DNA of 64,000 bases from a virus. Shown here piece after piece: positions 5,420-24,052 of this stretch; position 1 is the stretch's first letter, and the number at the start of each line of letters is the position of its first letter. Location: the IMG/VR virus record IMGVR_UViG_3300025133_000027, positions 1 to 64,000 of that record; one strand, given 5' to 3'. Made by a program: the position numbers and the translations under genes. The notes under the pieces are model-generated. The model made no database searches. It worked only from the letters and a program-made list of their open reading frames with translations, and was not told the origin of the DNA.

Positions 5420-5698
5420 ATGCGGACAAACATGAGAGATCCTCGTTCTGAGGATGGAGTTTTTAATTCCCGAGATCTGCATGGGCAACTTGTTGACTGC
5501 ACTTATTATGAAAATGAAGTATATTTCATACTCTTTATCTGGGATAAAGAACGACACTACATGAGAAAGACTTCCTATTATGGAGATGAAGTCAGCAACC
5601 CTCCAGAAAGAAAAACGAATAAAGTCTTCGCAGTATGTTCTTTCTTACAGAAAGAAAGTTTTATCTTCTTAGGAAGATACCCAGTTTTTTCAGCCTGA
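5420..5698 (+). CDS. small protein, YPVF-tail family
   Basis: GGAG SD; ends GRYPVFSA. Confidence 0.75.
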   Translation: MRTNMRDPRSEDGVFNSRDLHGQLVDCTYYENEVYFILFIWDKERHYMRKTSYYGDEVSNPPERKTNKVFAVCSFLQKESFIFLGRYPVFSA

Positions 5699-5763
5699 TC
5701 ACGGGATGTGTTAAAGTGATTGCAAACCACTCTATCTGAGTTCGAATCTCAGCAGGTTGTCCA
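5691..5763 (+). tRNA. tRNA-Cys(GCA)
   Basis: CAGCCTG/CAGGTTG-T-CCA; TTGCAAA loop; CTGAG-TTCGAAT-CTCAG; short D arm. Confidence 0.8.
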
Positions 5764-6027
5764 ATGTGGTATGTTTATATTGTAGAATGTTTAGATGGTT
5801 CCTTATATACGGGGATAACAACTGATATTGAAAGAAGAATCCACGAACACAACAACACCAAGAAAGGTGCCAAATACACAAGGTCACGAAGACCCGTTAC
5901 TCTTTTATGGAGTAAAAGCCTCGCTACGCAAAGCGAGGCTTTGCTATTTGAAATACAAATAAAAAAACTAAAGAGAACCAAGAAATTAGAACTGATTAGT
6001 AAAAAGGATTCTGCAAAGGATCTTTAA
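5764..6027 (+). CDS. GIY-YIG nuclease (YhbQ/UPF0213 type)
   Basis: WYVYIVEC-DGSLYTGITTD--RR--EHN---GAKYT-SRRPV, E--IKKL. Confidence 0.9.
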   Translation: MWYVYIVECLDGSLYTGITTDIERRIHEHNNTKKGAKYTRSRRPVTLLWSKSLATQSEALLFEIQIKKLKRTKKLELISKKDSAKDL

Positions 6028-15154: not shown

Positions 15155-16008
15155 CTGAATGAGGGACTGCAAAGCAGTTGCTACAACCCCATGGTTTTAT
15201 TGACTAAACTGAGTATCTCAGGACCCTAATTATTTGTCAAGATGAGGTAAGGTCGTGTAATCATTGAGGAAACACGATATATGGGCAATTCACAAGTCTT
15301 CACATTCTCAAAATGAGACACCAATGATATTGGGCACTTACGATGTGGAAATATGGAACACGCGCCCGATCTTGCTTGACTTGCAAGTCCTTGAAATCAT
15401 TGAGGTTCTCTGCGGTGGTGAAAAATCCCCCAACTATACAAACATCAACCGAATATTTGTCGAATGCCCACTAGACGAATGAGTGGATTTGAGGCCGTTT
15501 CAAAATGATCGCGTTTACAGCAACAATTACAGAGACTTCCAGCTCCACAAACGTCAAGTTGGGCATTTTGAGCCGGATCTGGCCGATCTGCCCTCCGCTA
15601 AGTGCCTGAAATCACACACCGGGCAACAGGGCTTGGCGAAAGGCTGGCTATTGAGGGCCGGTTCTGCCATAATCCGGGGGCGGCAAGGGAAACAACCTGA
15701 GCCGGCCCGAAAGGGAGCCTGCGCGGCTCTAACCGGGCGATTTTTAACCTATTCCTTGTCACACCACTGCGCGTGGTCAGACATTCAGGAAAAGGCTAGC
15801 AGAATCAATACCTTAGCAGGTGTGTTGGTAGTACGCTGGAAAAGCTCAATGAAAACTAGTGGTCAAACGTGGTCGGAAAGACTATAGCAGTAAGTACCTA
15901 ATGCCATTAGGGAAAAGCCTGCAAGCCTTGGGTTAGAACGAGGGCTAAGTAGTCAATTACGATGGTCGGCAGTAGAATCGGCGCACGGTAAGTATATAGA
16001 ATGATAAA

Positions 16009-16078
16009 GCAATCGCACGCTAGGTGCGGCAAGGGCTCAAACCCCTTGTTAGGGTTCGATTCCCTAACGATTGCGCCA
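16009..16078 (+). tRNA. non-canonical tRNA-like RNA, anticodon CAA
   Basis: GCAATCG/CGATTGC-G-CCA; 6-bp anticodon stem; no variable loop; 6-bp T stem with TTCGATT. Confidence 0.65.
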
Positions 16079-16198
16079 AGTTGCAAGGGGTGGACATAAA
16101 CATATCCCCTTGCAATTTCGGGGGGTTAGAAAGATAAAGGTCCGTCGAGGGTGCGCGGTTATGCGCCAAGGCCCTGAGCTAACTCCCCAATTTATAAC

Positions 16199-16248
16199 GA
16201 TATTTGCTGGTTGCCTTGCAAGGGTTCAAATCCCTTGAAATATCGCCA
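16199..16248 (+). ncRNA. tRNA minihelix (acceptor + T arm + CCA only)
   Basis: GATATTT/AAATATC-G-CCA; CAAGGG-TTCAAAT-CCCTTG; 13-nt linker. Confidence 0.7.
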
Positions 16249-16477
16249 AGTTAGAAAGCCATAGGCCGAAAAGTCGGGCTAGGCTATACTGAGAGGGTAG
16301 AAAGGAAGGACGCGAACGAAAATGAAGCGGCTTCACGATGCTGAATGATTTCAGCTAGTTTCGAAGGGCTTTGCAGCAAAGTCGAAATCGGTTATCCTAT
16401 CTATGCGAAATGGTTGAGGTTCTAGGTTGAACCTTACGGAATAATGAGAACGAACCCTCTAAGGGTTCAAAGGATAC

Positions 16478-17209
16478 GTGAAAATGAGTGTTATTGTTGA
16501 GGATTTTGATTCGTCGGTTGTTTTCTCCAAGGGTGAGGGCAACGACGTTGCTAAGGTCACGTTTTCAAAGGAGGATTTGCCGCTTGTAGCGGTTGTTATC
16601 CAAGCCCTTGATAAGAAACGGACTCCGAAGGGCGCTGCTCGCGTGGCTTCTTCGAAGCTCACTAAGATCGGCTATGCCGTGCGTGAGAAAACTCGTCGTG
16701 ATTCCGACGTGTTGCGAGTCGCTGAGTCGCTGGCAAACTACGGGATGTTGACGAAAAAAGTGAGTGAAAACAAGATGTTCACTTACTTTGAGCCAAACGC
16801 TGAGTTTGACTCGGAAGTTGGTGATTCTGTTAAGGAAAAGGCTGCCGGTGCCTTTCGTGAGAAAGTAAAGGCAGTTGCGAAGGATAAGGCTTCTAAGCCT
16901 GCTTCCAAGCGTTCCGGTCGCCCTCGCAAGACTGCATCACAGGAGGACTTCGAAGCCCTTGTGAAGCGTGTGGACGCCCTTGAGGCTGCGCTTGCTGGCA
17001 CTGAGTCGAATGAGGACGCGAAAGCGTCTGACAGCGATTCTGAAGCTTCCGAGGCTGATACCTCGGAAGTCGCTGAAGTGACTCAGGATTCTGAGGATGA
17101 GACGGAAGGTGAGGAAATTACTGACCTTTCCGAGTGCTCCCCTGAAACCCTTGCACTTCTCGCGGCTTGCGAGGACGAGGACGAGGACGATGAAGCCGTC
17201 AACGGCTAA
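16478..17209 (+). CDS. hypothetical protein with AT-hook-like GRPRK, short coiled coil and acidic tail
   Basis: 243-aa ORF with biased codon use. Confidence 0.8.
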   Translation: MKMSVIVEDFDSSVVFSKGEGNDVAKVTFSKEDLPLVAVVIQALDKKRTPKGAARVASSKLTKIGYAVREKTRRDSDVLRVAESLANYGMLTKKVSENKMFTYFEPNAEFDSEVGDSVKEKAAGAFREKVKAVAKDKASKPASKRSGRPRKTASQEDFEALVKRVDALEAALAGTESNEDAKASDSDSEASEADTSEVAEVTQDSEDETEGEEITDLSECSPETLALLAACEDEDEDDEAVNG

Positions 17210-17310
17210 GTCCTCGATTTCATAGGGAAAAGCGTTAGGGCGCTGCGATGGTTTGGACCCTGAGAATCCTACCATTGCCCCTGTGAACTGGGATCTGTAG
17301 TGATTCCGAC

Positions 17311-17363
17311 TAGTTAGCATGATGGATGCGATAGCGCGGGTTCAAATCCCGTCTAACTAGCCA
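17311..17363 (+). ncRNA. tRNA-like RNA without anticodon arm
   Basis: TAGTTAG/CTAACTA-G-CCA; GCGGG-TTCAAAT-CCCGT; mini D hairpin only. Confidence 0.7.
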
Positions 17364-17644
17364 AGATGATTGAATTAATTGGGCGAGCGACTTGCCGGAA
17401 GGTCGCAAGTGAGTGGAATGTGATGGTTTGCACCTAAGTTCGTGTTTTCCTTGGCATTAGGAAGGCACGTTAAATATCTTGAACGATTGCAGGCACTTTG
17501 AATCTCTAGCCTGTAGAATCCTGATAAACACAACGAAATCAAGAGGTTATAATGGTTCGAAGTCGTGATGGTCCCGCAAGGGTTTAATATTACTAGGAAA
17601 GATTAGTAAGTCCGCGTGTTGCGGCAGCTTTCCGCAACAAAAAC

Positions 17645-17713
17645 ACAAGGTTAGCAGCAAAGGGCTGCAATCGTGAATGATTTTAGCGGGTTCGACTCCC
17701 GCGCCTTGTGCCA
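17645..17713 (+). ncRNA. tRNA-like RNA with shortened anticodon loop
   Basis: ACAAGGT/GCCTTGT-G-CCA; GCAGC/GCTGC D arm; AATCG-TGAA-TGATT; GCGGG-TTCGACT-CCCGC. Confidence 0.65.
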
Positions 17714-17880
17714 GGAAAAGCGGAACAATATCGGGTAGTTACAGGTATTTAGGCAGAGTCACTGAAAAACTCCATAAAGTCAGTGACTTAATGCCGCCTG
17801 TGATCGGCTTGGACGTATAGACGGGGCGGGCGACGAAAAACCGTTGCCTATTGCATACTTAGAGGGCGTTCCGCTTTTCC
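17714..17880 (+). ncRNA. structured ncRNA closed by a 13-bp stem
   Basis: GGAAAAGCGGAAC/GTTCCGCTTTTCC encloses a long hairpin (AGTCACTGA/TCAGTGACT). Confidence 0.55.
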
Positions 17881-18212
17881 TTTAATACCACGAAAGTGTG
17901 AGTAATATTCGCTAGTTGCGATGGTCTAATAGAAATTGACTAATTGCCGTTGCCACTCGGCGCAATCCTTTGAAATTGTTGGGCTTTCCCACTCAAGCTG
18001 AAAAGCTGAACAATTGACATTGGTTGCGAGGCTGGTACAACTCTCCAATATTGCTCCACTTTCCCAATACAGGGTCCAGCCCTAACTGGCGGTTATCGTT
18101 GTCGAAATCAGCGAGGCAATAAACTTGAACAATATCAGGAGCATAGAGTGGTACTTCTTTTGTTTGATATATAAATCCAGTGAATTCAGGGAGTTGTGCA
18201 TGACTGCCCTGG

Positions 18213-18279
18213 ATCACTGATGTAAGACCTTGAAATTAAAGGGAAAAGCCTGGAAGTTTCAAGGTCTTACATCAGTGAT
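18213..18279. repeat. perfect 23-bp inverted repeat, each arm with an IHF-like site
   Basis: ATCACTGATGTAAGACCTTGAAA ... TTTCAAGGTCTTACATCAGTGAT, 21-nt loop. Confidence 0.9.
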
Positions 18280-18308
18280 GATTAAGCCAACGATTACAGG
18301 GAGTTACA

Positions 18309-18530
18309 ATGAACCTTCAAGCTTACATGGCGAACGTGCATAACGCATTGAATCGACATCGAAACTGGCGATACGGACAAGCGTTATTCAACGTGCTATT
18401 TGATATGTACCCTAACAGTGCAAACAAAGTGCGTGGAACCAATGCAGATCCTTTCTACGCTAAGAACACTAAGAGTCCGCAAGTCGGTGAATTCATGGAC
18501 TTTCTTTTTGAGGAAGCGAAACGCGGCTAA
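18309..18530 (+). CDS. hypothetical phage protein (WRYGQ-FN family)
   Basis: WRYGQALFNVL...RGT-ADPFY; GGAG SD. Confidence 0.8.
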   Translation: MNLQAYMANVHNALNRHRNWRYGQALFNVLFDMYPNSANKVRGTNADPFYAKNTKSPQVGEFMDFLFEEAKRG

Positions 18531-18816
18531 GTCCGCGAAAGAACAGAGCAATTCAGGTTGAATGGTTTAGATAGTCACGCATTACTCCTAACCATTCGTA
18601 ATTGCTGTAAGTTTTCCTGGCGTGGGGAAACACCTGAAAGTCTAGTTAATTAGGATACTAATTAGGTAGCCATTGTTGAATGGTTTCAATGGGTTAGACT
18701 CCCATTGGCTTCGAGAGTCGTCGGTACGGAATCGCTAAACAATGAATATCGTTGGGGATTGTTAGTAAGCAAGCCAACTAACCATGCTGGCAAGTCTTCA
18801 TTTCCTCAACGATTAT

Positions 18817-18890
18817 GCGCCTTTAGCTCAGTTGGATAGAGCATCGGTCTTCTAAACCGAGGGTCACAGGTTCGAATCCTGTAAGGCGCA
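18817..18890 (+). tRNA. tRNA-Arg(TCT)
   Basis: Canonical cloverleaf; TCGGT-CTTCTAA-ACCGA. Confidence 0.93.
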
Positions 18891-18930
18891 CCCAACGCAG
18901 TGAAATCATTGCGAAAATAGGAGGTTAAAC

Positions 18931-19164
18931 ATGAATGTGGTTGAAATTACTTTGCTTTCTAGGAGTGCCGGTCGTAGAAAATACGGCTATTATTTCAAGC
19001 AGGTGGATCACACTGTATTGATTAGGGAAGTATCGCAAGTTACGAACCCTGATTTTACCAGGGAACCCTTTGAGTTCGAAAAGGATTTCGTAAAAGTATC
19101 TATCAGGGATATTGACCGTGTTATTGAAGGGTTGCAGGCTATGAAGTTGCTCGTCAGCAAGTAG
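18931..19164 (+). CDS. hypothetical protein
   Basis: AGGAGG SD. Confidence 0.75.
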   Translation: MNVVEITLLSRSAGRRKYGYYFKQVDHTVLIREVSQVTNPDFTREPFEFEKDFVKVSIRDIDRVIEGLQAMKLLVSK

Positions 19165-19582
19165 CCGAAATCATGGAGAAAATCATGAAAGCACGTAAAT
19201 ATCGAGTGATTCTGGCACGTTGCGGGATGCCACGGGTTCGAATCATCACGATTGAAGGTCGTTCGGATGCGTATGATTTCCGAAAAGCCTATGTAAATCG
19301 CAACGTTGGGTTGAAGCTGAGTGATCTAAGGGTCGTGCAGGTGCGACGATGATTCGTAACCAACGGGATTCAAACGGAATTCTAAGGCTGGTGCATCGCA
19401 CTGATATTATTGAGCAAAATGAGGATGGCGAGGTTAGCACACTAACGATTGTCTTCCTAAGCCCCAAAAAGCGCAATAATGTTATGGTGTTACGCGACCC
19501 TATAAGGGTTCTAAAGATTAGAAACGAGGCTCTTAGAATTCAGGAATTCTAAATAATAATAACAAGTTAGGGAGTAATTAAG

Positions 19583-19723
19583 ATGGCTAAGGGAAAGAAC
19601 GCATTCGGCAAGTCGCAAGCTCGCGGAAAGACTACGAAAAAGAAGACTCGCCAGGGTCAAGGTAAGTTCTCGAAACGAAAGGGAGATCGCAAGATGTCCC
19701 GTGGCCAGGGCAAGGCTTGTTAA
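19583..19723 (+). CDS. small basic phage peptide (KKTRQG...RGQG type)
   Basis: MAKGKNAFGKSQARGKTTKKKTRQGQGKFSKRKGDRKMSRGQGKAC; GGAG SD; shorter than any ORF in the supplied track. Confidence 0.7.
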   Translation: MAKGKNAFGKSQARGKTTKKKTRQGQGKFSKRKGDRKMSRGQGKAC

Positions 19724-19932
19724 ATGAACGAAATAATTACGAAAATCAAGAGGTACTTTTGTCCGCATCCTATAAGTGCCCGAAAGCATGGGTATTTGCC
19801 GGAACAACCCTGGCGTTGGTCTGAGTGTTCGGAGTGTGGTAGAAAGTGGTATCATTACATAGACTTGGCGATCGTAGTCAAGTAACGTCGTGAAATTGCT
19901 AGGTTTTCTCCTAGTTATAAGGAGGTGAACCA

Positions 19933-20103
19933 ATGGCGAAAAAGCGAAAGAAGAAAAAGTTCAATGAAATCAAAGCCTTGTCACGCAAGCTTGCTATGCG
20001 TGATGGTGCATATGATGGAAGGTTCAAAGTGCGCGTAATTGCTAACAAAAAGCGCAAGACTAGCCGTGAGGCTTGTCGGAAAAGAGTTAGCGAGGAATCT
20101 TGA
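19933..20103 (+). CDS. small basic peptide, weakly ArfA-like
   Basis: AAGGAGGTG SD; GAYDGRFKVRVIANKKRK. Confidence 0.7.
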   Translation: MAKKRKKKKFNEIKALSRKLAMRDGAYDGRFKVRVIANKKRKTSREACRKRVSEES

Positions 20104-20160
20104 AAGATTTCAACTAGTTAGAGGTCCGTGGGATTTAATCAAGCGATAACAGGAGGTTAC

Positions 20161-20370
20161 ATGGCAAAGCTGAGAGTCGTTAAGCGTCGAACGGTTGGCG
20201 AAGCTGTATTTTGGACGGGATCGCTGAAACGTCGCGGAATTGTTGAGAGTGTGCAGGGAAACCGATGCACGGTGTCTTGGTATACGAAAGACGGTGATTT
20301 TATTCAGAAAGATGATGGATGGCGTCACTGTGAATTGATCGACCGTGTTGCAATCGTGAGGTATATCTAA
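20161..20370 (+). CDS. hypothetical protein
   Basis: AGGAGG SD. Confidence 0.65.
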   Translation: MAKLRVVKRRTVGEAVFWTGSLKRRGIVESVQGNRCTVSWYTKDGDFIQKDDGWRHCELIDRVAIVRYI

Positions 20371-20729
20371 TGAGTAAGGCCAAAAACACTAGCAAAGTTA
20401 AGGACTTATCTGGTGAATTTGGAGGGAACACAGTGAAAGCCTTGCTCAATTTCCCAAAGATTGCACGGACTTATATCATATCAGAAAAAGGCACGCAATT
20501 TCGTAAGATTGGAGTCAGTGTTGACGTGCGAAAGCGATTGTCAGACCTACAAACAGGAAATCCAAGAAAGCTGAATGTTATTCATGTGTTCCCAGGCAAC
20601 GTAGAAAGGTCCATTCACGCAATTCTTGAAGGATATTCAGGGGTTGCAAAAGGTGAATGGTTCGAATTGACTGATTCGGAAGTCAGTGTAATCGTTGACA
20701 CAATTCAAGAAATGTTTACAACGTGGTGA
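20370..20729 (+). CDS. T5orf172/MUG113 (GIY-YIG-like) domain protein
   Basis: KIG-S----KRL--LQTGNP--L, E--IH, GEWF. Confidence 0.85.
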   Translation: MSKAKNTSKVKDLSGEFGGNTVKALLNFPKIARTYIISEKGTQFRKIGVSVDVRKRLSDLQTGNPRKLNVIHVFPGNVERSIHAILEGYSGVAKGEWFELTDSEVSVIVDTIQEMFTTW

Positions 20730-21069
20730 CGGTTCCACGGTAAACATAAATAGTCTAAATAACTTAGGAGGTTATAAGACGCACAAGCAAGTCCTTGATA
20801 TGACTTGCGAAAAGTGAAACTATCAGCAACGCGGGAATGGTAATATATTCAAGGGGTTAAGAACTCCTCGTCAGGCAGGCTCATAACTTGCCCTCGCAGC
20901 CACAACCCAGCGAAATCGCTAAGGAAACTTGCCGGATGGCTTCACCATCAACTATGAGGCACGAAACTTCAATGATTTCGCTGGGTTGCACCATAACACA
21001 CCGTCAACGCTTGCAAGGCAACGCGCAGCGCATCTTGACGGTATTTACGAACAATATCAAGGAGTTATC

Positions 21070-24052
21070 ATGCAAGTGTATGTTATTCAGTATCTATACG
21101 CCTTCGAAATGGATAAGACCATTGAAGTGATTGAAATCAATGAGGATTTGCTGAAACGTAAGATATATAAAGTGTTCGAAGCAATGTTACTAGTCGAAAC
21201 AACCGGGGAAGGTAGTGAAATCTTTGATGAATCGCTGATGAAGCGAAACGGTAAGAAAATCAAAAAGTTTACCGAAGGTTGGTATACCTACGGTGATTTT
21301 GATAATGCAATTGATGTTATTATCAGAAAAGTCTATCAATAACAAGGAGTTACAACAATGACTAACAAAAACAATGGGTTTCGCGTAAGGTTCTTTATTG
21401 CAAGCCGGCCCAAGCCGATAATCACTAAAGATTTCAAGGAGTTCCCCGAGGCTGCGCGTTACGCTAAAACTATGCGAAATACTTGCGGATCTGGTTGGAA
21501 ACTTTCTTATGAAAATTTCCCAATACTTTCAGCAGGTTGGGAAGACAGTCACGGTGCTTTATGTGCCATTGACCCTAACGACTAAATCACCAACAATAAC
21601 AGGGAGTTACGGCAGTGAGTGGATTGGAGTTGGACAAAGTGCTACATGCACGCGAAATCCTTGCGGAAATGGATATTCCGATATTCCGCAAGGATCTTCG
21701 CAAGTTGAGCAACCTAAGTTGGTTAGCTCGTAACGTCTCGATTCGAAACGGGAATCACCCGAAGCTCAATGAATTGCTCTCGATTCTGCGAGAAATTAGA
21801 AAAGAGCAAAGATAACAGGAGGTTAACATTTCTTATGAAAACTAAGTTAAAGCTATATGCACAAGCACAAGGCCGCGTAATTACTAACGTTTCTTACGAT
21901 TGTGAAATTCCTGCATTACGCGACCTTAATTTGATTTTGCTAAACCCGCTAGATCCTTGGACTTTCCAGTTTAAGGCAACCCGCCGAAAAGATAGGTTTA
22001 TTTGGACTTCAAAAACAACCATTGTCACAATGGTCGTAACTGCGCCATATGATTAGTGTTTCGTGCCTGCTTGTCTTTCCTTTTGTTTTTCTGGTGTTGC
22101 CGGGGATTGAAACAGACTAATATCATTGCAGTTTTGGAATAATGAACAGCGTTCGATTCGCTGTGCTGCAACCAATTGAAATCATGGAGGAAACATGCAA
22201 TATGAGCTATGGAAGGCTGTCATTGTGTCTTTTGTCAGTTATATCGCAGTGTTTGCGGTTGCCCTGATAATTGTTACAATTACTTAACAAAAACAAGCAC
22301 TTAGGAGTTAACACATGGGAAGGCAATATTGTTACTTAGTTACAAAGAGCACAGGATACGAGATTGGAGATGGTCCGCAAGTCTTTGATTATAAACCCGA
22401 ATTGGTTGACGATTACCTTAATGTAGTTATCGGAACAATTACAAAGGGTAAGATGATCGTCACACTGAATCACTCTTTAGAACCTAACGGAATTGAAGGA
22501 TATATCACAGGGTTATACACAACTGATATTGTTGACGGTTGGATTCGAGTGCAAGCCATTGAGATCAATAGGAGATACGATGCCAAATAAGAAAAGCCTT
22601 AAAAAACAACTAGCTGAAGTCAAAGCGCATAACAAGGTTTTGCGTAAGGATAACAGCAAGTTGCAAGCCAATTTGAGAAAGTCTATTCAAGACGGTTGTG
22701 ATTTGAGTGAAGAACTCAATAAAATCGCGGACTTATTGCATCCCTTGATGCAGTACGCAGATCACCTATAAAAACAACAACTTGGAGAACACATGAAAAT
22801 CGTCAATTATCTAAGACCAAAAACTCTCAAGAGTTTCAACAACTTGAAGATCGGACAGTGTTGCTTCGCAACCTATGACAATTGTGAGCCTTTTGTTGCA
22901 ATGGTGATCGATGGTCATGAACTCGTTGTAAACATTACGGATTCTGAGTTATACGAGATCAACGACCCAGCCCTTGAATTCATTGAGGAAATTCCGATGG
23001 ATCAGGCTCGACTAATCATCGGGAAACCTGAATAAAAACAACAACTTGGAGAACACATGAAAATCATCAATGAAATCAATGGCAACGAGGCCGAGTTGAC
23101 TGAGGCTGAAATCCTCTTTCTTATTGAGGACTTGGCGAGGAGCATTATTGAGTGCCAAAAGGTCAATGATTCCAAGCGGTTGTGCTTGCAAGTATCAATC
23201 AACAACATGACGAGAATCTTCAAGAAATTCAAGGGGTTGCTGGCCGAGCCGGAACCCGTTGAAACCTTTGAGATCCGTGACTTGACGACTGAAGAATTCG
23301 ATGAATTACACGCAGTTACAGACTTTTGGCACGAGGAAGGTCAAACCCCTTATAATCAATCAGATTTTGACAATTCGGTAACTCTCCGAAAACTATCCGA
23401 AAAGGTAAGTGACTGTTATTACGAGGTTTGGGAGGATTACGATTCTCTCAGTACAATCAAGGGGTTCACTCTCAAAGAGATTGAATTGGCTCTAAGTATG
23501 CTAAAGCATGACGATTTCTTCGATACCCCGTATGTGAGTGACTCCACGATCGCAAAGGTCAATAAAGCAATAAATTCAACCACTTAGCAACAAAGGAAAA
23601 CACAGCATGGAAAAAGCATACGGACTTACAGGGTTAACCAAGCATCAAATTGATGAATTAAGTTACACACTTAGCGTTGAGGAGCATCTTGACGACGCAA
23701 CCGTTGAGCAAGTCAGTGAAATCATTGACAACATGAATGATGATGAATTCAATAAATTCATGAACAATATCAGCAACTTGCGAGGAAACTAATGAAAATG
23801 ATCAATAAAATCTATGTAGTAGAGCTTTCGTCGCATGATGGTCGAACTCAAGCTAGCTTTAAAACTCAGCAAGGTGCCAAAAGGCTTATAGCGAGACTAG
23901 AAAAGCAAAAAAAGTTTGTTGAAGAAAACAGCAATGATCTCCGCGAACACGAACTCAGGTACAACGACAAGGAAACAGGGCAACAATTCCGATTCTCACA
24001 TATTACCTTACCCACACGTATACATTTCTATACAATGCCCCTTCATCAGTAA
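21070..24052 (+). other. cluster of ~10 small hypothetical early genes (21070-21342, 21358-21585, 21615-21815, 21835-22056, 22315-22590, 22580-22771, 22793-23035, 23057-23587, 23607-23792, 23792-24052)
   Basis: Co-oriented short ORFs with GGAG SDs, several SDs embedded in IHF-like sites. Confidence 0.65.
22126..22174 (+). ncRNA. tRNA minihelix (acceptor + T arm + CCA only)
   Basis: TTGCAGT/GCTGCAA-CCA; ACAGCG-TTCGATT-CGCTGT; 13-nt linker. Confidence 0.7.

Follow-up and report, generated by a model that had tools for sequence, protein, structure and literature searches.

Truncated tRNA-like elements in a marine virus genome: reduced tRNA genes with preserved acceptor/T-arm helices and a possible role as RNA processing marks

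Here, we analyzed short tRNA-like elements in IMG/VR virus record IMGVR_UViG_3300025133_000027, a 176-kb record from marine metagenomes that is ~97% complete. The analyzed stretch, referred to as the window, comprises the first 64 kb of this record (positions 1 to 64,000). Between small open reading frames (ORFs) at 16-22 kb, the window carries a set of elements that combine an acceptor stem, a directly stacked T arm, and an encoded CCA with a reduced or absent D arm and anticodon arm. Comparisons with related genomes indicate that these elements are reduced tRNA genes in which the acceptor/T-arm half has been maintained by selection, and we propose that they may act as marks for RNA processing.

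Results

Identification and architecture of the truncated elements

A sequence-only reading of the window had described tRNA minihelices without an anticodon arm at 16199-16248 and 22126-22174 and two related elements at 17311-17363 and 17645-17713. We scanned the window for a T loop matching T[TG]C[AG]ANN whose stem had a minimum length of 4-5 bp and was stacked directly on a 7-bp acceptor stem (G-U pairs allowed), with a CCA within 4 nt; the 5' acceptor strand was allowed to lie up to 100 nt upstream. Besides true tRNAs, this independent scan recovered all four elements on the plus strand as described and added two, at 16009-16078 and 5691-5763. In total, 7 CCA-ended folds were observed compared with 0.03 expected per 64 kb, as estimated from 30 Markov shuffles of the window searched on both strands; one of the seven is a real tRNA-Arg(ACG). 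Over the whole 176-kb genome, T-loop-bearing matches were confined to the main tRNA cluster, which wraps around the record ends, and to the 16-22 kb stretch, and all were on the plus strand. The elements are intergenic and on the same strand as the genes. Between 9 and 26 kb, every gene is on the plus strand, and this region consists mostly of small ORFs without an assigned function, located downstream of a MoxR-type ATPase and VWA/metallopeptidase gene pair. Minimum free energy folds gave the same architectures as those proposed by the scan.

Two elements are bare minihelices of 46-49 nt with 7 + 6 bp, a 13-nt linker, and a 7-nt T loop. The one at 16199-16248 (plus strand) consists of GATATTT, the 13-nt GG-containing linker GCTGGTTGCCTTG, the T arm CAAGGG-TTCAAAT-CCCTTG, and AAATATC-G-CCA. 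The stem of its T arm nearly matches the second arm of the 16009 element (GCAAGGG.TCAAA.CCCTTG) as well as the hairpin downstream of that element, which points to a local duplication. The minihelix at 22126-22174 (plus strand) consists of TTGCAGT, the 13-nt GG-containing linker TTTGGAATAATGA, the T arm ACAGCG-TTCGATT-CGCTGT, and GCTGCAA-CCA, and it ends 22 nt upstream of the ATG of a 30-codon ORF. The 7-bp acceptor stem assigned to this minihelix earlier leaves no discriminator base; the alternative is a 6-bp stem followed by A73 and CCA, in which A73 could pair with U-1. The element at 17311-17363 (plus strand) is a minihelix with one small GG-loop hairpin in an 18-nt interior and has a 7-bp acceptor stem, the 5-bp T arm GCGGG-TTCAAAT-CCCGT, G73, and CCA.

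The remaining two elements of this stretch are reduced cloverleaves in which the anticodon loop is unusable or not conserved. The element at 17645-17713 (plus strand; fold z, -3.5) has the acceptor stem ACAAGGT/GCCTTGT, a D-like arm, a third arm with a 4-6-nt loop and no anticodon loop, the T arm GCGGG-TTCGACT-CCCGC, G73, and CCA. The 70-nt element at 16009-16078 (plus strand; fold z, -3.8) has an acceptor stem formed by 16009-15 and 16068-74, a 3-bp mini D hairpin with a GG loop, a second arm (CAAGGG-CTCAAAC-CCCTTG), a 6-bp T arm (TTAGGG-TTCGATT-CCCTAA), G73, and CCA. The stem sequences are unrelated among the elements, which share the acceptor/T-arm top half as their conserved unit, as had been proposed from the sequence. 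A GG is present in every linker or D-like loop. This GG is the counterpart of G18G19, which together with the T loop builds the tRNA elbow.

CCA is encoded in 6 of 6 truncated elements compared with 4 of 10 full tRNAs (Fisher P = 0.034), and there is no global CCA enrichment in the non-coding block (1.1% vs 1.0%). Standard tools did not report the elements as tRNAs. ARAGORN called none of the truncated elements; the 17311 element scored 20.9 bits against RF00005, under the cut-off of 29 bits; the 16009 and 17645 elements reached only 21-26 bits to Rfam tRNA-Sec, which was the best Rfam match of the 16009 element (25.8 bits, sub-threshold); and the 16199 and 22126 minihelices had no Rfam match at E ≤ 10. 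The elements thus do not qualify as canonical tRNAs, which are cloverleaves with a D arm, a 5-bp anticodon stem with a 7-nt loop, and at least 29 bits to RF00005. The pairing of an upstream base with the discriminator base, which had been noted for three elements, was discarded as a special feature because N-1:N73 pairing is equally common in full tRNAs: it is present in 5 of 11 full-length tRNA-like genes, comprising 10 ARAGORN tRNAs and the one inside the GOLLD RNA that is also encoded on this genome.

The elements are reduced genes of a tRNA array

Only two lineages carry the elements, namely the window strain, which was seen unchanged in contigs from several samples (L008-L017), and a relative that is ~93% identical and represented by L018/L019 and the RNA contig L007. 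In a more distant relative, L020, the VWA protein is 55% identical to that of the window, and an ortholog of a 243-aa ORF of the window (49% identity, E 2e-45) is encoded downstream of the same ATPase/VWA pair. Directly after this ortholog, L020 has at least 13 full tRNA genes interspersed with small ORFs, and most of these tRNA genes encode CCA. An additional full tRNA-Thr gene of L018 occupies a slot in which the window has none. Moreover, the L018 homolog of the 17311 element is 12 nt longer and folds into an acceptor stem, a mini D arm, a short third arm, and a T arm, and is thus an intermediate between a tRNA and the one-hairpin form of the window. Because the syntenic region in L020 holds a full tRNA array, these comparisons show that the elements are cut-down descendants of the genes of such an array. 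The strain pair shows this reduction in progress, with comparable slots holding forms that range from a full tRNA via a three-armed homolog and a one-hairpin form to a bare minihelix. "Purpose-built," as the elements had been called in the sequence-only reading, is therefore the wrong word, given the syntenic array in L020 and the three-armed 17311 homolog in L018.

Searches for additional carriers returned the lineages mentioned or genomes with none of the elements. Using blastn with 15900-22300 against 50,697 phage records, only tRNA-Arg matched, and the window ATPase is <35% identical to those of cultured phages. IMG/VR scans with the 243-aa ORF, with an alignment of this ORF, and with the exact 16199 and 22126 sequences returned nothing, while the corresponding scan with the ATPase returned L001-L006, in which no truncated elements were found, L001 stopping too early. 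An exhaustive HMMER search with the 243-aa ORF returned only the 95% cluster, a search with the ORF at 23057-23587 returned only L018, and a metagenome scan returned only further copies of L018 and L020. The distant clade members L022-L025 and the cyanophage S-TIM5 (L029) have full tRNAs or none, and no minihelices.

We note several additional features of these loci. The 243-aa ORF (16478-17209) lies between the elements and has a conserved N-terminal part of 170 aa, an AT-hook-like SGRPRK motif, and a long acidic tail; it had no family match. L020 contains two tRNA-shell elements with degenerate interiors (1386-1466 and 13368-13443 of L020), one of which shares its acceptor stem with an L020 tRNA-Ser-like gene. 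For a T-arm/ACCA fragment upstream of ORF251 in L020, no 5' acceptor partner was found. GIY-YIG and T5orf172 nuclease genes lie within or adjoin the arrays, and Pfam and PHROGs searches with 20 neighboring ORFs returned nothing tRNA-related.

Stems are preserved between the window and L018

We aligned the window with L018 over 15.7-23.5 kb, an interval that contains four shared elements. The divergence was 8.35% in flanking non-coding sequence and 6.7% in coding sequence. In the acceptor stems of the four elements, 0 of 56 positions were changed, compared with the 8.35% of the flanking non-coding sequence (P = 0.0076). Changes were found at 3 of 14 positions in the 3' tails and at 11 of 98 positions in the element interiors, the latter in addition to indels (12 nt in 17311). 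In the 17311 element, two two-sided compensatory swaps convert the T stem from GCGGG/CCCGT in the window to TAGGG/CCCTG in L018; the acceptor stem is identical, and the tail changes from GCCA to GCCG. The 17645 element differs by four substitutions, all in loops or pair-preserving (in stems, G:C to G:U and G:U to A:U), and its CCA is kept. In the 16009 element, a loop A is replaced by G, the tail changes from GCCA to ACTA, and the outermost, sixth T-stem pair contains the one pair-breaking change observed, the stems being kept otherwise. The 22126 minihelix is 100% identical in L018, with flanks that are 92-96% identical. CCA, which had been regarded as part of the architecture, is thus encoded in all six window elements but lost in two of the L018 homologs.

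Because the acceptor stems are unchanged relative to the background and the T stems change by compensatory swaps, these comparisons support that the stems are kept by selection and are not freely decaying, in agreement with the earlier remark that they are unlike those of decaying pseudogenes. As far as can be judged from this alignment, helices and elbow are kept, the interior is free, and the CCA is optional. This pattern is the one expected of substrates for tRNA end processing, and ordinary tRNA genes display it as well.

A degenerate tRNA-like remnant without CCA at 18670-18707 (plus strand) lies upstream of a tRNA-Arg gene in the most divergent spacer of the region (81.6% identity). It consists of two adjacent hairpins, the second of which is T-arm-like (CAATGGG-TTAGACT-CCCATTG). 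Relative to L018, two of its pairs are changed on both sides in a compensatory manner (18670/18683 and 18690/18704), and two further changes are wobble compatible. The tRNA gene, encoding tRNA-Arg(UCU) at 18816-18894 (plus strand), is the sole full tRNA gene left in the 16-22 kb stretch; it was called by ARAGORN, scores 76 bits in Rfam, and is 98.7% identical in L018.

Transcription of the region

Much of the relative's version of the region is covered by contigs, including L007, of a DNase-treated metatranscriptome. This single RNA run consists of contigs only, the ends of which do not give RNA ends, and coverage gaps at the elements are not evidence. Promoter- and terminator-like sites are not in excess between 14.5 and 23 kb, and the four terminator-like sites on the plus strand all lie outside the non-coding block at 15.9-18.9 kb. 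Long transcripts that need processing are therefore plausible.

Cassettes ending in NCCA and other features of the window

Two stretches that are present in the window only, 16079-16248 and 17714-17890, directly follow a CCA and themselves terminate in NCCA. The former is a 170-nt cassette composed of 120 structured nt and the 16199 minihelix, and it is flanked by GCCAAGTT repeats. The structured spacer (16079-16198, plus strand; fold z, -4.4) is predicted to form a long hairpin and a three-way domain. This cassette is missing from L018 and from the DNA and RNA contigs of the relative, in which the joint is 16077->16248; accordingly, the 16199 element is present in the window-type strains L008-L014 and absent in L018. 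The latter cassette (plus strand; fold z, -6.2) begins right after the CCA of the 17645 element, is bounded by ~35-nt imperfect repeats, and contains a 167-nt RNA (17714-17880) closed by a 13-bp stem and followed by the tail TTTAATACCA. It is absent in L018, in which the CCA joins directly to the sequence that follows ACCA in the window. These data suggest that units ending in NCCA come and go as wholes.

Small-ORF cassettes are also swapped relative to L018: at 19720-20149, two ORFs are replaced by 32 nt, and at 22295-22570, a 91-aa ORF is replaced by an unrelated 91-aa ORF and the tRNA-Thr gene. The island is highly mosaic. A cloverleaf-shaped RNA is predicted at 20903-20988, with a 14-bp closing stem (z, -5.6) and no Rfam match; in L018, its closing stem has three two-sided compensatory changes, and one arm has a 13-nt insertion. 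The motif TAGGGAAAAGC occurs in the RNA-rich block at 15908, 17223, and 18239, the third copy being in the loop of a long hairpin (18209-18286), and only one copy occurs elsewhere in the 176-kb genome.

In the main tRNA cluster, the GOLLD RNA at 2355-2797 (175.7 bits) heads the cluster and contains the tRNA-like gene mentioned above at 2420-2489. The atypical 73-nt tRNA-like element at 5691-5763 (plus strand), which was not called by ARAGORN or Rfam, has a 3-bp mini D arm, the loop UUGCAAA with a Cys anticodon-like GCA, U73, and CCA, and may be a real but odd tRNA-Cys. The ATG of a gene for an 87-aa GIY-YIG protein (Pfam, 1.3e-20; region 5691-6027) is on the base directly after this element, an arrangement that recalls segB in the T4 tRNA cluster.

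Discussion

We propose that the elements are remnants of a tRNA array that are kept as t-element-like marks for RNase P and 3'-end processing in a terminator-poor, RNA-rich early region, a proposal that we consider to have about an even chance of being correct. A tRNA array would once have occupied the early-gene region and, with working tRNAs elsewhere, decoding would have become dispensable here. Internal deletions and swaps would then have removed D and anticodon arms, and the part retained would be the half of the tRNA that is read by processing enzymes, i.e., the stacked acceptor/T-arm helix, a GG standing in for the D loop, and the 3' N(CCA) tail; the GG-containing linker could preserve the elbow with the T loop. 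The region would be transcribed as long plus-strand RNAs in which host RNase P would cleave at the 5' border of every top half, while RNase Z or exonucleases would finish the 3' edge, with the CCA-adding enzyme acting where CCA is not encoded. These predicted cuts would set apart the small-ORF mRNAs and structured non-coding RNAs located between the marks and release tRNA-like by-products of 46-70 nt. Among the functions listed in the sequence-only reading, an RNase P/Z processing signal is the best fit to the intergenic and co-oriented placement of the elements, the lack of an excess of terminators, and the tRNAs that occupy the corresponding slots in relatives, with the cuts themselves being predicted.

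Several observations weigh against this proposal. L018 is the sole informative close relative, and the statistics therefore rest on few substitutions. As a whole, the elements are 77-100% identical, which does not exceed the identity of their flanks, and the CCA, which aids bacterial RNase P, is mutated in the L018 homologs of 16009 and 17311. The T-arm swap in 17311 could be a patch replacement and not the result of selection on point changes, and the interior of this element may likewise have been replaced as a patch. The 16199 minihelix is absent in L018 and therefore dispensable. Finally, RNA contigs, which cannot map RNA ends, cross the 16009 homolog and extend 19 nt into that of 17311. 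The sole contig to end close to a predicted cut (at 22125/6) stops at 22123, 2 nt short of the 22126 element.

Some of these observations would also fit the possibility that the elements are functionless wreckage, i.e., recent deletion and fusion scars of a decaying, plastic tRNA island with stems that are clean because they are young. The full tRNA array at the syntenic place in L020, the variable presence of the 16199 element, the tRNA-Thr gene, and several cassettes between strains, the loss of CCA in two homologs together with the broken T-stem pair in 16009, and the unremarkable identity of elements relative to flanks are all compatible with such decay, and the nearby GIY-YIG and T5orf172 nuclease genes could drive deletions by cut and repair. 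However, all 6 remnants retain the same half with both acceptor strands, and 0 of 6 retain only an anticodon arm or a D arm. Also, four truncated forms predate the split from L018 (~7-8% divergence), and yet their acceptor stems are invariant, and the stem changes that did occur are nearly all pair-preserving and include four two-sided swaps. On balance, we regard neutral decay as unlikely, although it retains appreciable weight.

A different possibility is that the excised 46-70-nt CCA-ended RNAs act in trans, by titrating a reader of the tRNA top half, such as defense toxins that modify or cleave the acceptor end, the CCA-adding enzyme, EF-Tu, or a synthetase, or by carrying an amino acid. 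The preferential encoding of CCA in the window copies, the invariance between strains of the acceptor-stem sequence itself beyond its pairing, and the stable tRNA-like RNAs of T4, among them rnaC with a consensus T arm beside a 7-bp acceptor-like helix, would be in line with such mimicry. It is nevertheless improbable, because the elements lack any known acceptor-stem identity set (neither G3:U70 nor G-1/C73), two of the L018 homologs have lost the CCA, one copy (16199) is dispensable, and neither a CCA-adding enzyme, Ro60, or RtcB was found when the phage was searched nor a tRNA-related gene nearby. We found nothing in support of the decoys, sensors of uncharged tRNA, or amino acid carriers that had been suggested previously. 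The tRNA-like 3' ends (NCCA and similar leaders) might instead serve mainly at the DNA level, as microhomology for the gain, loss, and exchange of cassettes between related phages. Both window-only cassettes begin right after a CCA and end in NCCA, with GCCAAGTT bounding one and the imperfect repeats the other, and further cassettes were swapped between slots of the same island. However, any tandem unit structure yields repeats of 4-8 nt as a by-product, the events observed number only two, and neither the invariant 5' acceptor strands nor the compensatory T-stem changes are explained in this way, making DNA joints a very improbable main function. In a broader and quite speculative scheme, which we also hold to be improbable, NCCA-ended top halves would join the modules of a phage RNA operon as its standard connector, serving both as RNA cut site and as DNA joint for cassette swaps, with the excised minihelices acting additionally as trans-acting decoys for host factors or defense toxins that read the acceptor end.

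If the elements are indeed processing marks, phages would share a mitochondrial trick, in which an enzyme-readable tRNA half punctuates long transcripts and releases non-coding RNAs with defined ends. This would account for the clustering of tRNA-like debris and large structured RNAs, such as GOLLD here, with phage tRNA genes, and would give annotators a class of elements missed by tRNA finders and Rfam. In the literature collection searched, we found no paper describing tRNA punctuation in phages.

Comparison with known systems

The plant-mitochondrial t-elements, which were found via the T-arm motif GGTTCRANYCC (PMC1920247), direct cuts by RNase P and RNase Z in vivo, thereby making mRNA ends and releasing a stable small RNA (Forner et al. 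2007, PMC1920247). They have a non-canonical tRNA-like fold in which a GGTTCRANYCC T arm is combined with an acceptor-like stem, lie between genes on the transcribed strand, and are derived from tRNA genes. Similarly, all elements described here have a T arm of the (G)GTTCRAWTCC type stacked on a 7-bp acceptor stem. They differ from t-elements in that their carrier is a 176-kb marine virus record and not an organelle, several copies encode CCA, and two are bare 46-49-nt minihelices; moreover, cleavage is demonstrated in mitochondria but predicted here. The likeness to t-elements is one of analogy and not of membership.

The nearest phage precedent is rnaC (species 1) of T4, which together with rnaD (species 2) is located at 70908-71171 of NC_000866. 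Both are non-decoding RNAs in a phage tRNA cluster, and the same cluster contains a GIY-YIG nuclease gene (segB). In our fold of rnaC, the T arm matches the consensus (CCGGG-TTCGAAT-CCCGG) and stacks on an acceptor-like helix of 7 bp around a 60-nt interior; rnaD ends in ACCA. In contrast to the window elements, rnaC is 139 nt long with a large structured interior and has no encoded CCA. The window elements are much smaller than rnaC and rnaD, are spread among ORFs, and share no sequence similarity with them, given that blastn against the phage collection matched only tRNA-Arg.

Acceptor/T-arm minihelices are laboratory model substrates of RNase P, RNase Z, and the CCA-adding enzyme. Like the 16199 and 22126 elements, they have a 12-13-bp coaxial helix, a 7-nt T loop, and a 3' NCCA, but they are constructs without the 13-nt linker, whereas the window elements are natural and genome encoded. 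RCCA dependence is noted in PMC12710915. The truncated tRNA genes and tRNA gene fragments of prokaryote genomes (PMC9897764) are likewise partial tRNA-derived sequences that are missed or misclassified by tRNA finders. In the window elements, both acceptor strands are kept and paired, and a comparison of strains shows stems that either are conserved or covary. Fragments of tRNA genes are typically 3' pieces left at integration sites. With regard to a reading of the elements as attP or integration sites, both acceptor strands are present, and the ORFs scanned, among which an integrase was not searched for, gave no hint of a temperate lifestyle.

Two further RNA classes were considered and rejected. 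With respect to the tRNA-like domain of tmRNA, which is marked by G3:U70 along with a tag reading frame and pseudoknots between its acceptor strands, the elements have no G3:U70, their interiors are 13-34 nt, ARAGORN found no tmRNA, and the Rfam tmRNA matches cover the T arm only (12-17 bits). For bacterial Y RNA (YrlA), which combines a tRNA-like domain with a Ro60-binding stem, there was no match in the window at E ≤ 10 and no TROVE (Ro60) domain in the genome. The elements are best described as a set of tRNA-derived top halves that appear to be selectively maintained and that are akin to t-elements and to the tRNA-like stable RNAs of phages, with a putative function in RNA processing.

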